Source: Verrucomicrobiota bacterium (GTDB taxonomy: Bacteria; Verrucomicrobiota; Verrucomicrobiia; Chthoniobacterales; UBA6821). Taken from it: DNA of 32,000 nt. This document shows positions 6,086 through 30,715 of this stretch, in pieces. The notes below the pieces were generated by a model. The model was not told the origin of the DNA and searched no databases. It was given only the letters and a program-made list of their open reading frames with translations. Every line of letters starts with the position of its first letter. Position 1 is the stretch's first letter. Made by a program: the position numbers and the translations under genes. The stretch covers positions 1 to 32,000 of the forward strand of contig WBXG01000013.1 of assembly GCA_008932965.1 (NCBI GenBank), written 5' to 3'.

Positions 6086-6170
6086 TGATATAAAGAGTGT
6101 TGATCACTCTATTCTTAATTAAAGTTTGCTGGAAGCCTCTCTATGAACTCCAATCTAAATGGTAAAGGGT

Positions 6171-6197
6171 TCACCTGAATATTTCATCCTAATTCTG
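6171..6197. repeat. Solo terminal-repeat-like fragment abutting a full MITE copy
   Basis: TTCACCTGAATATTTCATCCTAATTCTG resembles the terminal repeat. It shares the variant ATATTTCATCCTAA with the remnant at 8063. Confidence 0.4.
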
Positions 6198-6380
6198 CTA
6201 ACCCGGATATTTCATGCTTATCTTGACTAAGAGGCCGCGAAGGCTGATGGAAGAGGGCACGTGATGAAGTCTGAGGACGGCTGTAGTAGTCCCTACTGGC
6301 CGAGGAAGACTTCGAACTCAAGCAGCATCGACCCTTGCTTTCAACCACCACAGGTGATCAGTATGAAATATCTAGGCTAA
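6198..6380. mobile_element. MITE-like element, subfamily B, full length
   Basis: Left end CTAA+CCCGGATATTTCATGC and right end CAGTATGAAATATCTAGG+CTAA. The flanking CTAA is a direct repeat, not an inverted one, which argues for a target-site duplication. It lies 25 nt downstream of the sctW stop. Confidence 0.85.
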
Positions 6381-6405: not shown

Positions 6406-7602
6406 TCACGCGATCTCACTCTCTCGAGCAATGGCAGAATCTAAGGAGCATTGTATCGCTCTTAAGCAATTTTCTCGATTAGCGTCACTAGGAAAGATTC
6501 TTTCTGGAAAAAGCCTCATCATTTCATAAATACGAGTTAGGAATTCAATGGAGAGTTGAAGTGGGGGAACAGAAAATTTTTCTGCAATACGCAAAAACTC
6601 ATCATCTAGAAGTGTCTCTTTGGTCACACGCGTCAATATTTCATTGATGAGTAGAGAAGGTTTCACAGGAATAACAGGGTTATTCATATTCATTTTTGTG
6701 AGCATTTGAAGAAATGAACGGTATGCATTACGAAAAAATTCTATTTGACACAAGCCGTCCATAACACTTTTTAAAAATGAAGGTTCTAGAGAGGGAGCAT
6801 TGGACTTTAATTCTGCTGCTAATGATTTCAAAAGAAACTCTAATGCCTTCTCAAGGCGCTCCTGGCCTTCTTTTCCATCTGGCTCTTCCCCTTGTCCCTG
6901 CTTATTTTTTTTCTTGTTTTTATCCCTCTTCACTCGATCTAATTCCGGAAAAGAATTCATGATAGTGCGATAGTTCGTTACTAAATCTTGATTGCTAAAA
7001 ACGACCTGACAGTAAAAATCTCTGAGTGCAGCTACAAGATCGGCCTCATCCCCTATTGTTGATGCGGCAATTTGAGAAATATTGTATCCAGCTCGAATTT
7101 CAGCTCCATTAGACTCATCCAAATCACTCAGAATTTGTTCTAATAATTCCTTAAGCAAGGGATCATCTAATTGGCTTTCAAGAACCTTAATAGCACCTTT
7201 GAGCGCTGCACTTTTTAAGGTGGGATCATCAAACAGAGAATCTAATGTTTGCTTGATCTCATCATAACTTCCGCCTCGTTGACTCCTTCTAATTTGAGCC
7301 ATAAATTTTTTAAAATTAGGAGATTCGGAGAATTCTTCAAAATCAGGAAGGCTTTCTTGCTCATCCTCAAATGCATTTTTCTCCTTTTTTTGAGAAGTGC
7401 TTTTGAGTTCGACTTTGCTGCTTGAGGCAGATTGCCCCCCACGATCATCACCCTCATCATGAATTCCAAACTCAATATTATCATCAGCACGAGATTTTTT
7501 AATTTCCTTACCTCGATACAGCCCTACACCCTGTAAATCAGCAGTGTCGATTTCACCCCCTACAGGCCTTGATACACGAGCTTGAACCCTCGGATTCATC
7601 AT
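6406..7602 (-). CDS. sctW: T3SS gatekeeper SctW (fused YopN/TyeA type, CopN/MxiC/InvE family)
   Basis: 398 aa. It has a disordered N-terminal secretion-signal-like region. The central region NGAEIRAGYNISQIA...LRDFYCQVV matches the HrpJ/YopN domain pattern. The length equals YopN plus TyeA. It is followed by the SycN-like chaperone gene. Confidence 0.8.
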   Translation of the reverse strand: MMNPRVQARVSRPVGGEIDTADLQGVGLYRGKEIKKSRADDNIEFGIHDEGDDRGGQSASSSKVELKSTSQKKEKNAFEDEQESLPDFEEFSESPNFKKFMAQIRRSQRGGSYDEIKQTLDSLFDDPTLKSAALKGAIKVLESQLDDPLLKELLEQILSDLDESNGAEIRAGYNISQIAASTIGDEADLVAALRDFYCQVVFSNQDLVTNYRTIMNSFPELDRVKRDKNKKKNKQGQGEEPDGKEGQERLEKALEFLLKSLAAELKSNAPSLEPSFLKSVMDGLCQIEFFRNAYRSFLQMLTKMNMNNPVIPVKPSLLINEILTRVTKETLLDDEFLRIAEKFSVPPLQLSIEFLTRIYEMMRLFPERIFPSDANRENCLRAIQCSLDSAIARESEIA

Positions 7603-7605
7603 CTC

Positions 7606-7995
7606 TTAAGGACTCACTATTTTTGTGATCTGAAGAGAGGGGACTCCCTCCACCAAAATTAAATCGGCTTGAGCAATAGTTTTTTCTTGAAGCATCACGG
7701 ATGCTTCAAATTGAGAACCTCCAAGAGAAATCACTTTTCCCTCTACAAGGGAGTTGAGCTCCTCCATAGGAATCATTTGATTTCCTAATACAAAAGATAA
7801 TTCCACTTTCAATTGGAGGGAGGTGCTAGGCTCTTTTGATAATTCTTGAGGTGCTACTTCCTTTGGAGGTGAGGTTATTATCTGAGGCTTGACCTCAGGT
7901 GATTCTATTTCAGTAGAAGTTTCCTTACTCTTCAATAAAACCTCATCTGGTAATTGTTCTACTAATTCTGGTTTTGTATCATCAGGATTTGCCAT
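7606..7995 (-). CDS. Stand-alone SpoA (FliN/SctQ C-terminal) domain protein
   Basis: 129 aa. The C-terminal ~75 aa (LKVELSFVLGNQMIPMEELNSLVEGKVISLGG...IAQADLILVEGVPSLQITKIV) fit the FliN/SpoA pattern. The N-terminal half is Pro/Glu/Lys-rich and looks disordered. Its stop lies 3 nt before the sctW start. Confidence 0.75.
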   Translation of the reverse strand: MANPDDTKPELVEQLPDEVLLKSKETSTEIESPEVKPQIITSPPKEVAPQELSKEPSTSLQLKVELSFVLGNQMIPMEELNSLVEGKVISLGGSQFEASVMLQEKTIAQADLILVEGVPSLQITKIVSP

Positions 7996-8062
7996 GCGCT
8001 AACAAATATCTCACTTTCTTCAAGAGGTCAAAAATTATAGTCAAATTACTCATCTCGGATAA

Positions 8063-8125
8063 CTAACCCAGATATTTCATCCTAAATCGTTATGAGTCGT
8101 CACATAGCCAGATTGAGGACCAATA
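8063..8125. repeat. Degenerate left arm of a MITE-family element
   Basis: CTAA+CCCAGATATTTCATCCTAAATCGTTATGAGTCGTCAC...AGCCAGATTGAGG parallels the left arm (CCCGGATATTTCATACTGAATCGTCATGAGGCGCCGC...CCTGATG). No right terminal repeat was found. The right boundary is approximate. Confidence 0.5.
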
Positions 8126-11748: not shown

Positions 11749-12809
11749 TTTATGAGGTTAAGTTGAGTAATAAAAACCGCATGCTGTCCATGGAGTTCTA
11801 CTAATTCTCCAGCACCAATACATGCTCCATGAGCATAAATTTTCAATGGATTACTAACTGTCGTGGTATCTGGTATTTTTAATAATTTAGCACCATGGGT
11901 GATCTCATCCTTTGTTAAAAAAAGTCTACCGGCACTGAATGAGAGCTCTCTATTGACACGTTTTTCTAGCGAAGCAAGCTCGTCTTCTTGAACATTTTCT
12001 TTTTTTTCTAATTCTGGGGTCTCTTTTGGTATCAATGGAGAAATAACTATTTTTTCTAGGGGACGAATTAGGGAATTGAGTTTTTTTTCACCAAGTGAAA
12101 TCGGCAGGCGTTGATTATTACCAAAATGAAAAAAAACTTCCCCTGTTACCAATGCGGATGGTTCTTCAAAAAAAACAAGGTCCCCTAATGTAAGTTTATT
12201 AAATTGAAGCGGGGATACTTGTGTCGTACCAATAACAATTTCTCCCTGAAAAGGAAATTGATTAAGATCGGAACGTATTGCACGTGGGAGTGTTGCAGCC
12301 ATTGCAAGAAGCTTTTCAAGCAACACGCTGGGAAGTTTTATTGCACCATAGATTTCAACTAGGGAATCCTTATTTAGAACTTCAAAGCAGAGGTTTTGTT
12401 CTCCTTCTACGGCATCATCGCCGTCCTCTTTCTCTTCGGCTTTTCTTAATGAAACCGGTAACTGAAAAAAACTCTCTACGAGTTGAAGTATTTTTTGACT
12501 GCAAAAAGCTATTACTGCATCCAGGAAATCCTTGGGAATAGACTCCTTGCCACCAAATTGTGAAAGGCTTTTAGTAATGTTACTTTCTATTGTCGGTTTT
12601 AGTGCTATGTCGATGTGGTGATGATCTATCTCCAAGGGGAGGTGAAAGTCAAATGATTCATTACAATTCACTGCAGGAAAAACAAATCGGAGTCGTTGAG
12701 AAAAATCTTTTTTAGAAAGTGGAAAAAATCTTTTAGAAAAAATTAATTCTTCATAAACCGCCACATCACTTTGAGAAAATTCAAGAGGCCTATAGGGTAT
12801 CTTTATCAT
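11745..12809 (-). CDS. sctQ: T3SS cytoplasmic sorting platform protein SctQ (YscQ/FliM-N family)
   Basis: 354 aa with a C-terminal SpoA-like segment (NPLKIYAHGACIGAGELVELHGQHAVFITQLN). It lies between sctP and sctR. Its ATG overlaps the sctP 3' end by 20 nt. Confidence 0.85.
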   Translation of the reverse strand: MIKIPYRPLEFSQSDVAVYEELIFSKRFFPLSKKDFSQRLRFVFPAVNCNESFDFHLPLEIDHHHIDIALKPTIESNITKSLSQFGGKESIPKDFLDAVIAFCSQKILQLVESFFQLPVSLRKAEEKEDGDDAVEGEQNLCFEVLNKDSLVEIYGAIKLPSVLLEKLLAMAATLPRAIRSDLNQFPFQGEIVIGTTQVSPLQFNKLTLGDLVFFEEPSALVTGEVFFHFGNNQRLPISLGEKKLNSLIRPLEKIVISPLIPKETPELEKKENVQEDELASLEKRVNRELSFSAGRLFLTKDEITHGAKLLKIPDTTTVSNPLKIYAHGACIGAGELVELHGQHAVFITQLNLIK

Positions 12810-14100
12810 CGTTTAAGTGCCCTCTATTTTCTTGATTCAAGCTTGCAAAATCATTTTCAGCCTCTCTTTGATTACTAAATTCTGAAGATGATGATGAAGG
12901 TAGAAATTGAGTTTTTACCTCAACTGTTTGCCCAGAACAAAGAGTAGCAAGATGATTCTGAAGTGTAGCAATATTGGCATTGAGCAAATCATTACTTGCA
13001 AGACTTCTGGTAGAGAAAAAAACCTCCATTTGTTCTGTATTTGCATTAATATGAACAGTGGTTGCATCAAGAACGTCACTACGAAACTGGAATGAAATAT
13101 CTTGGCCATTAGAACTATTAAGGCGTGCTCGATCTACGGTAGATGTGAGTTCACTTAAGAAGGTGGATACATTACCAGTACGTATAGCACTTGCCAAAGA
13201 AGCAGGAATCTTTCCTCCAAGTGCATCTGACGAGCCTATGGATCCTTCATTTTTAAAATTAGAAATAGACTGATTTGCCAAAGAGGAAGTAGAAAATCCT
13301 GGGACCTCATCTAGGGAACTCAATTTATTCTCATTGAATTCTTTCATAGTTGTTGCACTCTCACCATCAGAAGCAGCATTCGTATCGAGGCCTTGCGAAA
13401 GACTGGGAACACTGGGAAGACTACTCACAACCTCATCAATAAGAGCATTGGTATCGGGGCCTTGCGAAAGACTGGGAAGACTACTCACAACCTCATCAAT
13501 AAGAGCATTGGTATCGGGGCCTTGCGAAAGACTGGGAAGACTACTCACAACCTCATCAATAAGAGCATTGGTATCGGGGCCTTGCGGAAGACTGCTTGTG
13601 CCATCGTCTTTAAAGGAAGCCGAGCTTAGAGAGGCCATTGCTGCTGATAAAAGAGTTGAAAGGTCTTCTTTATTTTCATCGAGTATTGAAACAGTTACAG
13701 TATTTATTCCCATGCCGGCTCCTTGAAGAGAAAAAGCCCGTTCTTTTTGAGGATGATCATCATCTCCATCATCACTTTTTACTTTGAGAAAATCGCTTTT
13801 TTCATCAACATCCTCGACATCATTTTGATGAGAAGAGGAGGAAGCTGCCAACTTTTTCTGATGAACAGCAGATGATGATTTTAATTGGGAAGTGTTAAAA
13901 TTGCTCTGATCTTTTTTCTCTGTGTTATCTTCTGCAATAGCCTTATTGTTATAACTTCTATTGCTTGAAGACTCCAAGGAGTTCTGAAGATTATAGAGAC
14001 TGTACGATTCCTCCACAGGCTTGGAAGAATGAATCGTAGCAGAGGAAACCTCTGATTTGGACTGGGTCTGATAAGCTTTTGTTGCTCGTATAGTACTCAT
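12790..14100 (-). CDS. sctP: T3SS needle-length ruler and substrate-specificity switch SctP (YscP-like)
   Basis: It occupies the position between sctO and sctQ. It is Ser-rich and low in complexity, with internal 20-aa tandem repeats. The C-terminal ~100 aa (ISFQFRSDVLDATTVHINANTEQMEVFFSTRS...LQNHLATLCSGQTVEVKTQF) fit the T3S4/FliK C-terminal pattern. The ATG at 14100 (MSTIRATKAYQ...) is preferred. The tracked ORF extends to a TTG at 14193. Confidence 0.75.
   Translation of the reverse strand: MSTIRATKAYQTQSKSEVSSATIHSSKPVEESYSLYNLQNSLESSSNRSYNNKAIAEDNTEKKDQSNFNTSQLKSSSAVHQKKLAASSSSHQNDVEDVDEKSDFLKVKSDDGDDDHPQKERAFSLQGAGMGINTVTVSILDENKEDLSTLLSAAMASLSSASFKDDGTSSLPQGPDTNALIDEVVSSLPSLSQGPDTNALIDEVVSSLPSLSQGPDTNALIDEVVSSLPSVPSLSQGLDTNAASDGESATTMKEFNENKLSSLDEVPGFSTSSLANQSISNFKNEGSIGSSDALGGKIPASLASAIRTGNVSTFLSELTSTVDRARLNSSNGQDISFQFRSDVLDATTVHINANTEQMEVFFSTRSLASNDLLNANIATLQNHLATLCSGQTVEVKTQFLPSSSSSEFSNQREAENDFASLNQENRGHLNDDKDTL
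13371..13593. repeat. In-frame 60-bp tandem repeat inside sctP, about 3.5-4 copies
   Basis: 13441-13500 and 13501-13560 are identical 60-mers. 13371-13440 is a variant carrying a 9-bp insertion, and 13561-13593 is a partial copy. The repeat encodes SSLPSLSQGPDTNALIDEVV. Confidence 0.95.
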
Positions 14101-14240
14101 GGTTTTAGAACTACTATCGCATTCCGTTAGTAGTAAGAGACACCACATTAAAAAGGTGCGAAATGAGAATGACAACACTCTTATTAACGTCAATGAGAAA
14201 ATGGGAACCGATCTATAATTATTGACGCATTATTTTCATT

Positions 14241-14424
14241 TTAACCCGGATGTTTCATACTGATCGTGACGAGGAGGCCGCGAAGGCTGATGGGGTAAGG
14301 CAGGCGAGCATTTTGATGCAGGTCTGTATGTGTCCCTACTGCCCAAATCAAAATGGGAGTCTAACGCAGCATCCATCTGACTTCCCGGCTTCCGTAGTAG
14401 ATCAGTATGAAATATCCGGGTTAA
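14241..14424. mobile_element. MITE-like element, subfamily B, full length (reference copy)
   Basis: TTAA+CCCGGATGTTTCATACTGATC ... GATCAGTATGAAATATCCGGG+TTAA. The internal halves are partly complementary (GAAGGCTGATGG with CCATCTGACTTCC; CATTTTGAT with ATCAAAATG). It lies between sctO and sctP. Confidence 0.9.
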
Positions 14425-19449: not shown

Positions 19450-19552
19450 TTAACCCGAATATTTCATACTGAATCGTCATGAGGCGCCGCGAATCCTGAT
19501 GCAGAAACCACTGGCGGTCGGGAGACCGCGGTGGAGACTGCCCTGGCTTTAA
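19450..19552. mobile_element. A-module repeat
   Basis: TTAA+CCCGAATATTTCATACTGAATCG...CCACTGGCGGTC-ggga-GACCGCGGTGG...GCCCTGGCT+TTAA. It shares its right-hand TTAA with the adjacent B-prime copy. Confidence 0.85.
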
Positions 19553-19734
19553 CCCGCATATTTCACACTAAATCTATTACGGCTTGTGGAAAGCTCCTCA
19601 TTACTGCGTTGGTCTCGAATTGTGATTTGGACAGTATGAAACATACAGCCCGGCATCCCAATCCTTTGCCCGCCTTGTACTAATAAGCTTTGCACGGCGC
19701 CTCATGACACTTCAGTATGAAATATCCGGGTTAA
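19549..19734. mobile_element. MITE-like element, subfamily B-prime, full length
   Basis: TTAA+CCCGCATATTTCACACTAAATC ... TTCAGTATGAAATATCCGGG+TTAA. It aligns along its whole length with the reverse complement of the 14241 copy, at roughly two-thirds identity by eye. It lies 25 nt downstream of the xfp stop. Confidence 0.88.
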
Positions 19735-24185: not shown

Positions 24186-25724
24186 ATGGAAGTTGAAATC
24201 TTAGCTAGGATTCAGTTTGCATTCACGGTAGCTTTTCATTACATCTACCCCCCTTTAACGATGGGCTTAGGGCTACTGCTAGTGCTGATGGAGGGGACAT
24301 TTATTGTCACCGGAGATCGCATGTATCATCGTTTAGCCCACTTTTGGACACGCATTTTTGCTGTTATCTTTTCCATTGGAACAGCCACAGGCATTGTCAT
24401 GGAGTTTGAGTTTGGCACCAATTGGGCTACCTATTCTCGTTTTGTTGGGGATATTTTTGGAAGTGCTCTAGCTGCAGAAGGTGTTTTTGCCTTTATGCTG
24501 GAGGCAGGCTTTCTTTCGTTACTTCTTTTTGGTTGGGATAAGGTAGGAAAAAAGACCCACTTTTTTGCTACCTGTATGGTTTGTTTAGGATCTCATTTCA
24601 GTGCTATTTGGATTGTTGTTGCTAATTCCTGGATGCAGACACCTGCCGGCTATCACCTGGAATTATTTCAAAATGGTGTGCACTCGATTCTACCTGCTGA
24701 TTATATTTTACAGACAGCTGATATAGGGCATGTACGTGCTGTAATCGATAGTTTTTGGGAAATGGTGTTCAATCCCTCATCGCTACAACGCCTCTGTCAT
24801 GTAATTTTTGGAACATGGCTATCGGGTTCTTTTCTTGTCATCAGTGTGAGTGCCTATTACCTCATTCGCGGTAGGCATCGTCGTTTTGCAGAGGCCTCGA
24901 TGACGATAGCCATTTTTTTAGCGGCTGCGACTAGTGTCTTTCAATCGATCAGTGCTGATGCTACTGCACGTGGTGTTGTTCAACATCAACCTATTAAGTT
25001 GGCAGCTATGGAAGGGGTTTATCATACCGCTCCTTATACTCCGATGAATCTCTTCGGCTATGTGGATGCATCGCAACAAACTGTCTACTCGATTCAAATA
25101 CCAGGATTGCTCAGTCTATTAGCATTTCATAATATAAAGACACCTGTGATTGGACTGGATCAACTACCTTCTGATGCATTTCTTGCCGCTAGAAATCCTG
25201 GAAAATCAGCTCAGGAACTTGCTGCACTACGTCCTCAATATTGGCCTAAAGTTCAAGGAGTTTTCCAAACATATCACATCATGATTATTTTTGGATCGAT
25301 CGTTTTTGGAATGGCCTTTTTCTCTCTCTTTCTATGGTGGAAGGGATGGCTCTTTAGGACTGATTCACTTCTGGTGCGCCTCTGGCTTTTCTTATTAATT
25401 TTCTCTGTTTTGTTTCCACAGATCTGCAATCAAGCTGGATGGTTTACTGCGGAGATGGGACGTCAGCCTTGGGTCGTGTATAATATCCTTAAAACCTCAC
25501 AAGCATTTTCAAAAAAAGTTTCCTCGGATCAAGTGCTAGGCTCTCTTCTTCTCTTCTTTGCTATTTATAGTCTCCTTTTCTTTGCCTTTCTTTATCTCTT
25601 AAATCGAAAAATTCAACATGGTCCTGATGATCCTGAAGAAGATCCTGAACCGTTGGAAGATGGAAAACGTGACTTTTTCTATCAACTTATGGTGGGTACT
25701 GACTCCTCACGTGCTTCTTCATAG
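24186..25724 (+). CDS. cydA: Cytochrome bd ubiquinol oxidase subunit I
   Basis: 512 aa. The N-terminus is LARIQFAFTVAFHYIYPPLTMGL. GWFTAEMGRQPWVVY is the family signature. It has an acidic C-terminal tail. Confidence 0.95.
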   Translation: MEVEILARIQFAFTVAFHYIYPPLTMGLGLLLVLMEGTFIVTGDRMYHRLAHFWTRIFAVIFSIGTATGIVMEFEFGTNWATYSRFVGDIFGSALAAEGVFAFMLEAGFLSLLLFGWDKVGKKTHFFATCMVCLGSHFSAIWIVVANSWMQTPAGYHLELFQNGVHSILPADYILQTADIGHVRAVIDSFWEMVFNPSSLQRLCHVIFGTWLSGSFLVISVSAYYLIRGRHRRFAEASMTIAIFLAAATSVFQSISADATARGVVQHQPIKLAAMEGVYHTAPYTPMNLFGYVDASQQTVYSIQIPGLLSLLAFHNIKTPVIGLDQLPSDAFLAARNPGKSAQELAALRPQYWPKVQGVFQTYHIMIIFGSIVFGMAFFSLFLWWKGWLFRTDSLLVRLWLFLLIFSVLFPQICNQAGWFTAEMGRQPWVVYNILKTSQAFSKKVSSDQVLGSLLLFFAIYSLLFFAFLYLLNRKIQHGPDDPEEDPEPLEDGKRDFFYQLMVGTDSSRASS

Positions 25725-25819: not shown

Positions 25820-26878
25820 ATGGCCATACATTTTTTGAGTCACCTTTTGGAAACCATCACCCCTTATTATACGATCATTTGGTTTGTGCTCGTAGGTGCT
25901 CTCTTTACGGGTTACTCCATGTTAGATGGATTTGATTTAGGAGTAGGTGTACTGCACCTCTTAGTTTCAAAGGATGAAGAGAGGCGCATTTTTCTCAATG
26001 CAATCGGTCCTGTCTGGGATGGTAATGAAGTCTGGTTAGTGGTTGGGGGAGGTGCTCTCTTTGCTGCTTTTCCGGGCGCCTATGCAACGGTCTTTTCTGG
26101 TTTTTACATGCCCTTTATTTTTCTCTTAGTCTTCTTAATTTTTAGGGCCGTTGCTATAGAATTTAGAAGTAAGGAACCGAGCACCTTGTGGAGGCAAACG
26201 TGGGATCATCTTTTTGCAGTAGGAAGTATTCTTGCTTCCTTCATGCTGGGAATCACCCTAGGGAATCTTACACGGGGAATTCCCCTTGATGCAGAGGGAG
26301 AATTTATAGGTACTTTCTGGGATCTATTAAATCCTTATAGTCTCTTTATGGGGGTCACGGTGGTAGTGCTCTTCGCGATGCATGGATCCATTTACTTAGT
26401 GATGAAAACCGAGGGAGCCTTGCAAGAACGAGTAAAATCCTGGGTGCCCTACCTTATTCTTCTTTTTGTTGCTTGTTATTTCATTTTTAATTTTTCAACG
26501 CTTATCGTTGCACCTCATCTTGCTGAGATAGTATTTTCTCGGCCATGGATATTTGGAGTTTTAGGCTTAGACATGTTTTTCCTTTGGAAAGTTTGGACCT
26601 TCGTAAAGCAAGGCAAAGAGCTCCTTGGGTTTCTTTGTTCCTGCATCATGATGGCCTTGTTGCTTGCTACTTTTGGTCTTACTTACTATCCAAATATGGT
26701 TCTTTCTCACCCCCATCCCGAAAACAGCGTTACTATTTTTAATGCTGCTTCTACCTCAAAAACATTAGGCCTTCTCTGTGTTATTGTTCTGCTAGGTATT
26801 CCAATGGTTGTCAGTTATACAACAAGTGTCTACTGGATATTTCGAGGAAAGACACGATTAACCGACACGAGTTACTGA
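25820..26878 (+). CDS. cydB: Cytochrome bd ubiquinol oxidase subunit II
   Basis: 352-aa polytopic protein with YSMLDGFDLGVG and WDGNEVWLV motifs. The last codons and the stop (26858-26878) lie inside the degenerate terminal repeat of the element at 26858-27038. Confidence 0.93.
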   Translation: MAIHFLSHLLETITPYYTIIWFVLVGALFTGYSMLDGFDLGVGVLHLLVSKDEERRIFLNAIGPVWDGNEVWLVVGGGALFAAFPGAYATVFSGFYMPFIFLLVFLIFRAVAIEFRSKEPSTLWRQTWDHLFAVGSILASFMLGITLGNLTRGIPLDAEGEFIGTFWDLLNPYSLFMGVTVVVLFAMHGSIYLVMKTEGALQERVKSWVPYLILLFVACYFIFNFSTLIVAPHLAEIVFSRPWIFGVLGLDMFFLWKVWTFVKQGKELLGFLCSCIMMALLLATFGLTYYPNMVLSHPHPENSVTIFNAASTSKTLGLLCVIVLLGIPMVVSYTTSVYWIFRGKTRLTDTSY

Positions 26879-27038
26879 TCACCTGCGAAAGCCGGGAAGT
26901 TAGACGGATACTGCGTTCGGCTCCCATTTTGAATTGGGGTCGGTGACTCATACAGCCCAGCATAAAAATGCTCGCCTGCCTTACCCCATCAGCCTTCGCG
27001 GCGCCTCGCGACGAATCAGTATGAAATATGCGGGTTAA
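26858..27038. mobile_element. MITE-like element, subfamily B, reverse orientation, filling the whole convergent intergenic space
   Basis: TTAA+CC-GACACGAGTT-ACTGATCACCTGCGAAAGCCGGGAAGT... ...CGACGAATCAGTATGAAATATGCGGG+TTAA. The left terminal repeat is partly degenerate. The interior aligns with the reverse complements of 14241-14424 and 30532-30715. Confidence 0.88.
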
Positions 27039-30000
27039 CCTCTTTTTCTTTAATTGCCGCTGCTGTTCTTTCCAGTTTTTTCCAGCGGACCCAGCTTCCC
27101 TCAGCTGCTTTAAAAAGCGATTTCCAGACGACATACCCTAACACCGGGCGGTATAAAAAGCGCATTGGAAGGGCTCTCCAAGCAGAGAGAAAGCTCCGTT
27201 TCGCTAAATGAGCGGAAAGTCCTGCAATAACAGTATCAATGAGTAGAGATAATATAAAATAAGGATAAATCGCTTTCCCTCGACCTAGGTATATTGAAAA
27301 AATAACGAGGAGATCAAGAATGGGGGTGATAGCAATAATGCCAATTTGAAAAATCCAAATGGAGGGAAGTGCCAACCATCCCAGCCAGCCTGAACCAGGG
27401 CTTAAGATGAGGGAGCGATGTTTCCAAACGCATTGCAATGTCCCAAATGCCCATCGAAAACGTTGAGAAAAAAGGGCTCGAATATTTTGAGGAGCCTCGG
27501 TATCGGCGATAGCCAAGGGTGCGTAGGTGACTTTCCAGCCGTATCGATGGAGTTGTAACGTCAGGTCTGTATCCTCTGCTAGGGTTTCCGTATTAAGTGG
27601 GCCCGCGTCTAAAAGAGCTTTGCGACGAAAGGCGCTTAATGCACCTGGAACAACGGTAATGCAATTTAAAAGATCTTGTGCACGTCGATTAATTTCAAAG
27701 GAAAATTCATATTCAATTTGTTGAAATCGTCCAAGCCAGTGGCGAAAATTACCAACACGTATATGTCCCGAAACGGCTCCCACTTCAGGATTGCTCAAAG
27801 GTTGAATCAAGAAACGTAATGCCTCGGAGGAGACCATTGTATCAGCATCTAGTGTAACAATATATTCGTGACTCGAGGAGGCGATAGCATCATTGAGTGC
27901 AGAAGCTTTTCCGGTATTTGGTTGTTGGAGTAAAATAATGCTGCGCTGACTGGTAGAATATTCGTTTACCCATCGCATGACTTTCTCAGATGTTTTATCG
28001 TGAGATCCATCATCAACAATAATCAATTCTATAGGAGCTTCATAGGAGCTAGCTAAAAGATGTTCTATGGTGGAGTCGATAACACACTCTTCGTTATAAG
28101 CAGCAACAATAACGCTTAGAGGAGGGAGAGAGCTATTGTATTGCAAATGAGATGAGACTTCCCTTTTTTCCCGTCGACGATGAAGCAAGGCACACGCAAT
28201 AAAAAAGAGAATGAATAATAATGATAATAGGGTTGTGATGATCAATAGTGTCCAGGCAGCCATTTCTATAAATCGAAGAGTTGCAAAGCTTCCATAAATA
28301 TAGCGCATCGCAACAGTAACATCTCCATGGCGCAATGGAGGCATGAGCACATCGCGTGGCAACTCAATAAAGCGTCCAAGTGGGACGATTTCATCTCCAC
28401 GTGCATGGAGGTAATCGATAATAAGTGGAAGTGCAGCGACAGTTTGAGACCGATTGCCACCCGCATCATGCATTAAAATCACACTCCCTCCATCAACACG
28501 TTCCTCCTTAATATTATTTAAAATCGTCTCTACTCCAGGACACTCCCAGTCGCTTGTGTCAATGGACTCCCCCACGGTGAGATAGCCAAGATCTGAAGCA
28601 ATTCCCAAAGCACGCAGTTCTCCTGGGGTTGATGGAGTCGCATCACTGTTGTAAGGGGGGCGAAAAAGAGAGGTGGAATGCCCGGTAATACTTTCAATGA
28701 GTCGCGTTGTGGCATTGAGTTCGAGGGAAATTTGCTCATCACTAGCTGCAGCAAGATTTTGATGTGTGTAGGTATGATTTCCTAATTCATGTCCCTCCTC
28801 TAAAATTTGTACTAGAAGGTCAGGAAATTGTTGAGCTTGTGAACCAACAACAAAAAAAGCAGCTGGAACCTTTTTCTCTTTTAAAATACGCAGAATGCGT
28901 GGTGTCCAAGTGGGGTCAGGTCCATCATCAAAGGTGAGTGCTACTTGATGCAGAGGTGCAGCTCCTTGGTGATATACACAAGCAGGACGAGGAAATTCTT
29001 CGTAGAGAGAACTCATGAACTCTGTGGGTTCTAAAGTAATATCACGCCATCCTTTGCTGGGCTCATCTCCAACGGAAAGAAAATCTCCCCTGCCAATCGA
29101 GGCTACTTCATTTTTAAGACTCAGGGTTTCGAAGGCTTCTAGTTCCTCGGTGGTCGGCTCATGACGATCTTCTGTTTTCATTTTGGATATGAATTTTAAT
29201 GCTTTCCAAATATCTGGATCCTCCTCCCCAAGACGGTCGAGCGCAATCCCTCCAATGGGATAGTGTGAGATGGTGTGTAATTGATTAAAAAAAGTGATGG
29301 CATCGAGAAACCAAATTTCATGTTCCTCTTTTTCATTAAGGCCAGAGAGATAATGAAATGAGGGTGAAAAATGAGGTGCTTCGACGCTAACATGTTCTGC
29401 TAAAGCAAGGTTGGCACGTGCCATGACATCGACAAAACTTAAAGTCTCAACGGTCCCTTTGGTTTCATTCCAATCAAGACCAAAGCAACCTAATCCAGCA
29501 ACCCATTGCTCCGCTTTACCGTAGCGGATTATTTCTTTGAGTTGTTCCTCAACCCAATCCTGCTCTGCTAGGGGGCCCGGTTCATCAGGCTCTGAGTTTT
29601 CATCATCAAGGGAGAGGACAAAACGATCTGCTACCTCGCTGAGGGCTTGTAGATCAAAAATTTTCTCTGCTTTCTCCGTTGAGATGCTGATCCAGAACTC
29701 ATAATGAGACTCATGAAGCTTCTTGCCAAAGCGAATCAGTAATTGATTTAGCTCCGTACGGTAGGAAGGATCGAGTTCATTCCAATCAAGGAGTAATCCG
29801 ATAGCTCCGGGTGGTAGACGTTTGATCAGATTACTGAAAAAAAGATCCTGCTCTTCGGTTGAGGATTTAAAGAGTCCTTCGATGGCTTCTGCTTGCCACG
29901 TTGTTCCATCAATGTTTCGTAAAATAGGAAGTAGGCCAAGATTCTTGCGCACACAACAAGAACGAATCTCCTCACTGGGTGATTCCACAAGTCTTCCTTC

Positions 30001-30486
30001 AACTCCAACGATATGAAACCAATCCGTTGCAACGTGTGTTAAAAAATCGGCATGCTGCTTGAGCGAAGAAATGCTTTGGGGGTCCCAATCTACAGCATAA
30101 CCCAGGCGAACAGGGAAAGAGGAGTACTCGAGTAGGTGCTGCTCTTGATTTTTTTGAGAAGGTGTTGCTACCGAGCTCACAAAAGCACTAATCCCACCCT
30201 CATGCTGAGAGTTTTTAGGAAAGGGGAGAGGGTTTGCTGTTTCTAAGAAGTGATGCCAATCTTCCGTGCTTGCCAGTAGACCTGGATCTTTAAATGCTTT
30301 TAGTGGTGTTCTGTATCCTCGCACTTGCTGGGGAAGACGTAGTTCGGGAGCAACCAGTAGGCTTGCTATAAAGTATGCAGAGGCACTAAGAAGAAGGAGT
30401 GCTATCACCACGATGGTGACTTGTAAAAAGCGGCGACGTCGCCCGTGAGGATCTGCAAAAATGGAGTTGTTAGAGTTCGAAGACAT
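27016..30486 (-). CDS. Three-domain membrane enzyme: GH18-like domain, NodB polysaccharide deacetylase and processive family-2 glycosyltransferase
   Basis: 1156 aa. TM1 spans aa ~21-45. The GH18-like TIM-barrel region spans aa ~125-425 (GLLLDWNE in place of DGxDxDWE; IGGIALDRLGEEDP). The NodB domain spans aa ~512-700 with TFDDGP, HTYTH, RPPY and LMHD. A second TM follows. The GT2 domain has VIVAAYNEE, IVDDGSHDKT, TLDADT, EDTDL and QRFRWAFG, and is followed by C-terminal TM segments. The last 7 codons and the stop lie in the element's terminal repeat. Confidence 0.9.
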   Translation of the reverse strand: MSSNSNNSIFADPHGRRRRFLQVTIVVIALLLLSASAYFIASLLVAPELRLPQQVRGYRTPLKAFKDPGLLASTEDWHHFLETANPLPFPKNSQHEGGISAFVSSVATPSQKNQEQHLLEYSSFPVRLGYAVDWDPQSISSLKQHADFLTHVATDWFHIVGVEGRLVESPSEEIRSCCVRKNLGLLPILRNIDGTTWQAEAIEGLFKSSTEEQDLFFSNLIKRLPPGAIGLLLDWNELDPSYRTELNQLLIRFGKKLHESHYEFWISISTEKAEKIFDLQALSEVADRFVLSLDDENSEPDEPGPLAEQDWVEEQLKEIIRYGKAEQWVAGLGCFGLDWNETKGTVETLSFVDVMARANLALAEHVSVEAPHFSPSFHYLSGLNEKEEHEIWFLDAITFFNQLHTISHYPIGGIALDRLGEEDPDIWKALKFISKMKTEDRHEPTTEELEAFETLSLKNEVASIGRGDFLSVGDEPSKGWRDITLEPTEFMSSLYEEFPRPACVYHQGAAPLHQVALTFDDGPDPTWTPRILRILKEKKVPAAFFVVGSQAQQFPDLLVQILEEGHELGNHTYTHQNLAAASDEQISLELNATTRLIESITGHSTSLFRPPYNSDATPSTPGELRALGIASDLGYLTVGESIDTSDWECPGVETILNNIKEERVDGGSVILMHDAGGNRSQTVAALPLIIDYLHARGDEIVPLGRFIELPRDVLMPPLRHGDVTVAMRYIYGSFATLRFIEMAAWTLLIITTLLSLLFILFFIACALLHRRREKREVSSHLQYNSSLPPLSVIVAAYNEECVIDSTIEHLLASSYEAPIELIIVDDGSHDKTSEKVMRWVNEYSTSQRSIILLQQPNTGKASALNDAIASSSHEYIVTLDADTMVSSEALRFLIQPLSNPEVGAVSGHIRVGNFRHWLGRFQQIEYEFSFEINRRAQDLLNCITVVPGALSAFRRKALLDAGPLNTETLAEDTDLTLQLHRYGWKVTYAPLAIADTEAPQNIRALFSQRFRWAFGTLQCVWKHRSLILSPGSGWLGWLALPSIWIFQIGIIAITPILDLLVIFSIYLGRGKAIYPYFILSLLIDTVIAGLSAHLAKRSFLSAWRALPMRFLYRPVLGYVVWKSLFKAAEGSWVRWKKLERTAAAIKEKEVNPHISY

Positions 30487-30531: not shown

Positions 30532-30715
30532 TATACCCGGATATTTCATGCTAATCGTGGCGAGGAAGCTGCGAAGGCTGATGGGGCAAGGTAGACATGT
30601 ATTTTGATACAGGGCTGTATGAATCCCTACAGCCCAAGTCAAAATGTGAGTCTCATGCAGTATCCATCTGACTTCCCGGCTTACGCAGGTGATCGGTATG
30701 AAAAATCCGAATATA
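30532..30715. mobile_element. MITE-like element, subfamily B, full length
   Basis: TATA+CCCGGATATTTCATGCTAATCG ... GATCGGTATGAAAAATCCGAA+TATA. It lies in the divergent region between the 1156-aa gene and lolC/E. Confidence 0.85.

Follow-up and report, generated by a model that had tools for sequence, protein, structure and literature searches.

In a 32,000-nt stretch of DNA from a Verrucomicrobiota bacterium of the order Chthoniobacterales (contig WBXG01000013.1, positions 1 to 32,000; hereafter the window), the space between two convergent genes is filled by a repeat that recurs throughout the sequence. This raises the question of whether a mobile element has supplied the C-termini and stop codons of both genes, cydB and a large synthase-like gene, as had been proposed by an earlier reading of the window without any comparison to other genomes (the sequence-only reading). 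Comparing both C-termini with those of orthologs, we found that the proposal holds for the synthase and does not hold for cydB. The gap is very probably occupied by a single decayed and immobilised copy of a miniature inverted-repeat transposable element (MITE), next to which the end of cydB is native and the tail of the synthase is element-coded, with two small deletions, one on the side of each gene, as the proposed route.

The gene cydB (25820-26878, plus strand) lies downstream of cydA (24186-25724) and encodes a 352-aa subunit II of cytochrome bd oxidase (Pfam Cyt_bd_oxida_II, 1.4e-98, residues 18-341). Its 3' end is ...FRGKTRLTDTSY-TGA, which corresponds to the peptide RLTDTSY followed by the stop codon. 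The convergent gene (27016-30486, minus strand) encodes a 1156-aa fusion of a polysaccharide deacetylase (NodB) and a family-2 glycosyltransferase (Pfam Polysacc_deac_1, 1.1e-34; Glyco_tranf_2_3, 2.6e-29), a predicted protein resembling poly-N-acetylglucosamine or chitin synthase, and ends with ...AAIKEKEVNPHISY-TGA, that is, with the peptide VNPHISY and a stop. Direct reading of the DNA yields the same two ends and the same coordinates as the sequence-only reading had given. The spacer between the two stop codons also consists of element sequence, as had been claimed, since its 137 nt (26879-27015) are collinear with other copies of the repeat at 81-93% identity. The best protein matches of the window come from uncultured freshwater Verrucomicrobia in or near the Chthoniobacterales.

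Members of the repeat family to which this spacer belongs measure about 176 nt in their core, carry terminal inverted repeats of 21 nt and duplicate a 4-bp target of the consensus YTAR. The 24-mer GTTAACCCGCATATTTCATACTGA, a true terminal repeat of the family, has eight matches with at most three mismatches in the window, against none in 100 shuffles, and the 8 copies or fragments that were identified in these 32 kb make up about 5% of the sequence. The reference intact copy (14241-14424), whose core extends from CCCGGATATTTCATACTGATC to GATCAGTATGAAATATCCGGG, is flanked by TTAA on both sides; its arms are 96% complementary and its predicted fold reaches -94.9 kcal/mol (z -9.6). Within copies in general, the arms are 21-25 nt long and 92-96% complementary. 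Searching GTDB species genomes with the repeat as a query returned at least 84 matching stretches, nearly all of them in four metagenome-assembled genomes (MAGs) of Chthoniobacterales. We collected 102 paired copies from 553 kb of sequence, comprising GTDB loci and the window; 59 of these present a core in the modal class of 170-179 nt, and in 64 of 100 pairs the left and right flanking 4-mers matched (TTAA 33, CTAG 18, CTAA 9, TTAG 2, TATA 1, GTAA 1). The copies of the window likewise differ in their target duplication (TTAA, CTAG, CTAA or TATA), which is the same on both sides of each. Because these identical flanking 4-mers follow the YTAR consensus and vary from copy to copy, and given the small size, the inverted repeats and the many dispersed copies, we classify the family as a MITE. 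At the 3' flank of cydB, the site is empty in three relatives (loci L001, L005 and L010) and filled in the window and in three others (L006, L180 and L004). No Pfam family or transposase was detected inside any copy, Rfam at gathering thresholds returned only tRNA and no family for the MITE, and no match to the intact copy was found in a plasmid collection. A literature search on MITEs in Verrucomicrobia returned no description of the present family, which itself appears to be undescribed.

Reading inward from an element end, two of the three frames are closed, one by TAA or TAG in the duplication and the other by TAC-TGA in the repeat, and the third is open as LTRIFHTD. The sequence-only reading had described these frames correctly. 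The open frame also accounts for a 107-aa ATG open reading frame (ORF) at 26811-27134 on the minus strand, which follows it (LTRIFHTD...) through the spacer and into the antisense strand of cydB; this ORF is almost certainly spurious and not a gene.

The copy that lies between the two genes is a relic (26879-27034, copy c7), collinear with the reference copy and others to the extent given above. Its body and its right repeat are preserved, and the left repeat has lost its outer 17-19 nt. Its complete right terminal inverted repeat is found at 27014-27034 (CCCGCATATTTCATACTGATT on the minus strand) and is followed by TTAA at 27035-27038, in the position of a target duplication. On the cydB side, other copies can be aligned without gaps only from 26873 (TACTGA) onward. 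The stretch that had been taken for a partly degenerate left repeat (TTAACCGACACGAGTTACTGA; TTAACCGAYACGAGTTAC) is not a repeat but cydB coding sequence, which element-free relatives carry as well. Having one terminal repeat only, the relic is therefore no longer palindromic.

Orthologs without the element show where cydB ends. The same 3' codons are kept in L001 (CTAACCGATACGAGTTAC-TAA), L005 (TTAACTGAAACCAGTTAC-TAG) and L010 (TTGACCGATACGAGTTAC-TGA), and L006 presents the same 18 nt (Leu-Thr-Asp-Thr-Ser-Tyr) followed by a complete repeat (...GAGTTAC-TAG-CCCGCATACTTCATGCCGATC). The last seven codons of cydB in the window (RLTDTSY, 26855-26875, plus strand) are thus the native codons, and in a MAFFT alignment the duplication and outer repeat of L006 fall exactly opposite a 19-nt gap of the window. 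The stop itself varies among relatives (TAG, TAA or TGA). At the protein level, the C-terminal residue is Y in 120 of 120 CydB homologs, down to 59% identity, and the last two are SY in 113 of them; the nearest homologs end in RLTDTSY or KLTDTSY, with or without an element downstream. These comparisons show that the left terminal repeat is evidently absent at this locus and that the native Tyr codon TAC is directly followed by the inner end of the repeat (TACTGATC), with the stop TGA (26876-26878, plus strand) standing on the junction between native and element sequence (TAC/TGATC, the slash marking the junction). They also show that the protein end of cydB, judged by its orthologs, is native, with at most the GA of its stop given by the element, and refute the claim that RLTDTSY is owed to the insertion.

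The opposite holds for the synthase. Its tail V-N-P-H-I-S-Y and TGA (27016-27039, minus strand) is base for base the TTAA duplication and the right repeat; the sequence-only reading had likewise assigned it to the right repeat. P-H-I-S-Y, the stop and the third base of the N codon come from the repeat core, while TTAA supplies the other two bases of the N codon and two of the V codon. The 29 synthase orthologs (52-86% identity) are alike up to ...KLERTAAAIKEKE (...ERTAAAIKEKE) and then continue into short variable tails, among them MIPKKYS, INEVST, QTNSTL, KSSTL and GVTL, with DTV, DTL, STL and VTL as endings. VNPHISY is absent in all 29 and confined to the species of the window, in which four further cluster members carry identical full tails. 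The last six or seven residues of the synthase and its stop are thereby shown to be coded by what is evidently the element. The sister lineage (L004 and L181-L184) presents a remnant of the right repeat, then TTAG or ATAG, 2 nt and the native TAA, and its synthases end in EDTV or EDTL. Relative to this lineage, 13 nt are missing in the window at the synthase end, and as a result the synthase ORF runs into the repeat. Although megablast aligned the native tail of L004 (GATACCGTATAATTC) with the repeat of the window, we rejected it as a degenerate repeat, since an ungapped alignment is obtained with the VTL and STL tails, stops included, of orthologs that have no element there.

Ends of this kind are not confined to the synthase. 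Across 239 element ends, we identified 50 ORFs of at least 100 codons that enter an element: 28 stop in the duplication (TAA or TAG, without any added residue), 10 at the in-frame stop of the repeat (9 TGA, 1 TAA) and 12 further in, a frame split of 10/28/12 with a chi-square p = 0.003. Genes ending at the repeat stop include those of a MurA-type enzyme, MurG, TrmD, a HAD phosphatase, a CorC-type transporter and an asparagine synthase, and in each of them the Pfam domains are complete ahead of the repeat-coded tail. The tails in related MAGs are of the xPDISY type (SPDISY, DPDISC, NPDISC, NPDISH and similar), close to the NPxISY ends for which the sequence-only reading had suggested a search. 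Once the elements are excised in silico, 16 of 67 non-coding insertions fall exactly on a stop codon, compared with 6.5% of YTAR sites (binomial p = 4.7e-6), an enrichment that was estimated from L091-L170 and the window with crude ORF calls and that lumps target preference and selection together. Frames open across the whole element numbered 72 in 83 elements, again with crude gene calls. It is possible, and we propose it tentatively, that the family is suited to landing harmlessly on coding sequence: with a YTAR target that contains TAA or TAG, its insertions fall on stop codons about 3.7 times as often as the available sites would predict (by the crude ORF calls), each end closes two frames within 7 codons, and the third is often open across the element on both strands. 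If this is true, such a family would, in uncultured freshwater Chthoniobacterales, systematically remodel the C-termini of proteins, provide them with inserts of about 50-60 aa, and represent a verrucomicrobial counterpart to the RPEs of Rickettsia.

Some elements lie inside proteins. A complete MITE copy with its flanking 4-mers is found in frame within the synthase gene of L004 (3935-4091, gene on the minus strand) and of L009 (5407-5590), at a site that corresponds to the linker between the membrane segment following the deacetylase and the glycosyltransferase domain. The inserted peptide reads ...MD-LARIFHTDRDEEAAKADDGCMSTYCPSKTSSSTQH...GDRYEISGL... (proteins P0122, P0245, P0246 and P0125), with the middle of the insert read in another frame in P0246, and the insert-bearing synthases measure 1234-1246 aa against 1156 aa for that of the window, which has no insert. 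An ORF of about 1190 codons in L136 (2-3586, plus strand) presents both an in-frame MITE (...SLTRIFHTDRNEEAAKADGV...GDRCEIFGLSQ...) and a repeat-coded tail, TQDIFY, followed by a stop.

How the arrangement at the cydB-synthase locus arose can be proposed in some detail, with about an even chance, in our view, that the detailed history is correct. The element would have landed between the two stop codons, which lay close together, or on them; stop sites are natural targets, as both TAA and TAG fit within YTAR. On the cydB side, about 19 nt, comprising the duplication and the outer left repeat, would have been lost, and the likely route is slippage in an L006-like state between the TACT within the native ...AGT TAC TAG and the TACT within the repeat ...CATACTGATC, two motifs 19 nt apart. 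The intact state, TAC-TAG-CCCGCATACTTCATGCCGATC, is preserved in L006, where the element is oriented as in the window; the truncated junction is also found in L180 (TAC/TGATTACCT..., TAC/TGATYACCT), and a shortened form, TAT/TGATC, in L004 and L181-L184. This first deletion would have kept the native protein end, with a stop that now reads TGA and is partly repeat sequence. On the synthase side, the lineage of the window would have lost the 13 nt that hold the last native codons, the native TAA and the 2-nt spacer. The synthase frame would then enter TTAA and the right repeat and stop at the built-in TAC-TGA, and VNPHISY would have replaced the short variable native tail DT[VL]. We infer the order of the two deletions and their mechanism. 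Five independent samples carry the arrangement, one single-nucleotide polymorphism apart, and it is fixed in the species of the window. The cydB tree is firm for three pairs only, namely the window with L004, L180 with L009 and L006 with L010.

Several observations weigh against this account. The history is built on few loci. L006, which provides the intact state, is paired with L010 in the cydB tree and has its element cut off by the end of the contig, and may owe this copy to a separate insertion. L009, which differs from L180 by 5% in cydB, does not share the left junction; the truncated junction must therefore be ancient, with a later loss, or else have arisen repeatedly. If the window and L006 share one insertion, the TTAA on the right does not match the CTAG on the left, and mixed TTAA/CTAG flanks are found in about 4% of copies. 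The 13-nt deletion shows no clear microhomology. Finally, an autonomous partner was not found: in the 553 kb sampled, no pair of repeats 600-3000 nt apart encloses a transposase-like ORF, and the ORFs adjoining solo repeats or lying in such pairs are ordinary genes only, without any autonomous insertion sequence. In L009, moreover, half a copy lies in the opposite orientation, with its repeat immediately next to the stop of the synthase (CTA-TAG/CCCGG...), and the intergenic site has therefore been hit more than once. The discordance between L009 and L180, the repeated hits and the TTAA/CTAG mismatch lower our confidence in the detailed history; the main conclusions on the two gene ends are unaffected. 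A metagenome scan with CydB returned only relatives at no more than 75% identity and so was of no help on the history of the locus. We also considered the cydB flank of L010 as a very old remnant of the element, and at about 55% identity over 27 nt the resemblance was too weak to call. Beside the MITE fragments downstream of cydB, L006 (4040-4124) and L009 (about 6790-6850) present another short repeat family (...GGTGCTCRCRTCCTCGAGYAT...).

Other histories of the insertion have to be weighed against the one proposed here. According to the sequence-only reading, an intact palindrome was inserted at the TTAA at 26858, inside cydB, and its two repeats code for both gene ends. The ends of the stretch 26858-26878, TTAACC and TACTGA, do resemble the ends of a duplication followed by a repeat, but its central 9-10 nt have essentially nothing in common with the repeat, and the whole stretch is native cydB in element-free relatives and lies upstream of the full repeat in L006. 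Excision at this TTAA in silico does extend cydB, to 404 codons with 52 extra rather than the roughly 57 reported; the excised TTAA is, however, part of a native Leu-Thr codon pair, so that the run-on ORF results from a wrongly placed boundary and is an artefact. The same reading had named shared C-terminal residues in orthologs without the element as evidence against itself, and the RLTDTSY-type end proves to be universal in CydB. We consider this model almost certainly wrong. A second possibility is that the element was inserted directly into a TTAA in the native tail of the synthase (GAG GTT AA...) and truncated it at once, without any later 13-nt deletion, the remnant in the L004 lineage being a separate insertion. 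TTAA is the commonest target, the native tail of L010 (GGG GTT ACT TTG TAA) begins with the same GTT A, and the oppositely oriented copy of L009 indicates that the site was independently hit at least once more. The window and the L004 lineage are nevertheless sisters in the cydB tree and agree in the orientation of the element, in the truncated TGATC junction on the left and in where the right repeat lies, for which one shared insertion followed by an indel is the simpler account. Direct insertion is therefore rather unlikely, although far from negligible, and we retain a shared insertion followed by deletion.

It could also be asked whether the relic or its peptide has been kept for a function. 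The relic might act at the RNA level as a bidirectional terminator (a shared role of this type had been suggested by the sequence-only reading), as a 3'-end stabiliser or as an RNase III target of both convergent transcripts. Hairpins of Neisseria and Yersinia MITEs are reported to affect the mRNA of adjacent genes (PMC2229807), the intact copies of the present family form a very stable hairpin (z -9.6), and the copy is conserved in five samples. The relic has lost one repeat, however, and its fold is no better than that of shuffled sequences on either strand (z -1.1 and -1.3); no terminator-like site, defined as a stem followed by a T-run, was found on either strand in 26500-27400, where 1.2 were expected; the element has shrunk to 43-51 nt in the sister lineage; and conservation within one species is expected anyway. 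A terminator thus finds no support in the sequence, and an RNA role of any of these kinds appears improbable. The relic is most likely neutral, as the long hairpin of the family cannot form and terminator features are lacking. A different proposal concerns the tail, x-N/S-P-D/H-I-S-Y, which might be a selected peptide, such as a sorting or degradation tag, spread by the MITE, given that at least 10 unrelated genes of related MAGs share this ending. This recurrence is, however, what a conserved repeat read in one of its three frames yields directly; the host proteins have no function in common and comprise both cytoplasmic and membrane proteins, the tail drifts with the repeat DNA (DISY, DISC, DISH, DILH, NISH), and the preferred outcome is a stop in the duplication that adds no residue (28 of 50). 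A selected tag is very improbable.

The present elements can be compared with several known systems. The Correia or NEMIS elements of Neisseria, also MITEs, measure about 100-160 bp, have repeats of about 24 bp and occur in large numbers beside genes, with which they are co-transcribed. The likeness to the present family is that of small, abundant and gene-adjacent MITEs; the Correia elements duplicate TA and carry IHF and promoter motifs, to which no counterpart was noticed in the present family. In Coxiella burnetii, QMITE1 and QMITE2 are small inverted-repeat MITEs that share 1-50 bp with the 3' ends of functional genes (PMC5896051). In strain Dugway, an indel joins the enhC ORF to a QMITE2 copy, which results in a MITE-coded C-terminus with a stop just past the insert (PMC5896051). 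The joining of an ORF to a neighbouring MITE by an indel is the same route as the one we propose for the synthase. The two families differ in sequence, host phylum and target duplication, the extension amounts to 33 aa in Coxiella against 6-7 aa here, and the synthase stop lies inside the terminal repeat itself rather than just downstream of the insert. The RPE of Rickettsia and the enterobacterial and Yersinia RU-1/ERIC and YPAL/RU-2 repeats are palindromic mobile repeats with one fully open frame that are fused in frame to proteins (PMC2229807, PMC2759123). The in-frame copies in the synthases of L004 and L009 and in the large protein of L136 are similar in this respect; no sequence relationship with any of these repeats is known, and at the cydB-synthase locus the frame closes after 7 codons, so that the protein is ended and not read through. 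Finally, the insertion sequence IS5 produces a 4-bp target duplication with the consensus YTAR (PMC5009759), which is the same as that of the present MITE. IS5-group insertion sequences are a likely source of the transposase; as the 553 kb yielded neither a transposase gene nor a full-length element bearing these repeats, this link is drawn from the target site by itself.

The overlap of MITEs with the 3' ends of genes, and the rewriting of these ends, is already well documented (PMC5896051, PMC2229807, PMC2759123), and known MITE behaviour is left unchanged by the present findings. The locus constitutes a clean example of how small indels beside a MITE rewrite the last codons of a gene. It belongs to a dense family with an apparent preference for stop codons that is tolerated in frame in proteins, in a poorly studied phylum. 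For annotation, the end of cydB can be treated as ordinary, and that of the synthase as a short tail derived from a mobile element and not as a conserved motif.

The remaining copies of the window vary in their completeness. One, at 30532-30715, is flanked by TATA on both sides, an atypical duplication for the family; it ends about 46 nt ahead of the start codon of the synthase (30486) and thus lies in the 5' region of this gene. The copy at 6198-6380 (CTAA/CTAA duplication) has a second, solo repeat just upstream (6170-6195), such that two tandem terminal repeats, 28 nt apart, occupy 6170-6223 at its left end; this looks like a solo repeat remaining after an earlier insertion. The copy at 582-855 (CTAG/CTAG duplication) contains extra internal repeats, and the one at 19450-19734 (TTAA/TTAA) has a second internal repeat 99 nt in and is the reverse complement, at 92%, of 1-193. 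The copy at 1-188 is cut by the start of the window, and that at 7980-8088 is fragmentary, with one repeat (8063-8088). A second small palindromic repeat, ACCACCGGCGGTCRGGAGACCGCGGKGGAGACTGCCCTGGCTTTAA, is nested in three of the MITE copies (86-132, 637-683 and 19507-19552), where it adjoins the extra internal terminal repeat and gives rise to a size class of 250-290 nt. A tRNA gene (450-536; Rfam, 57 bits) lies between the copies at 1-188 and 582-855. Finally, a 60-nt unit is present in 3-4 tandem copies, 97-99% identical, at 13365-13602, inside an ORF on the minus strand (12790-14193), in which it would give a 20-residue protein repeat.

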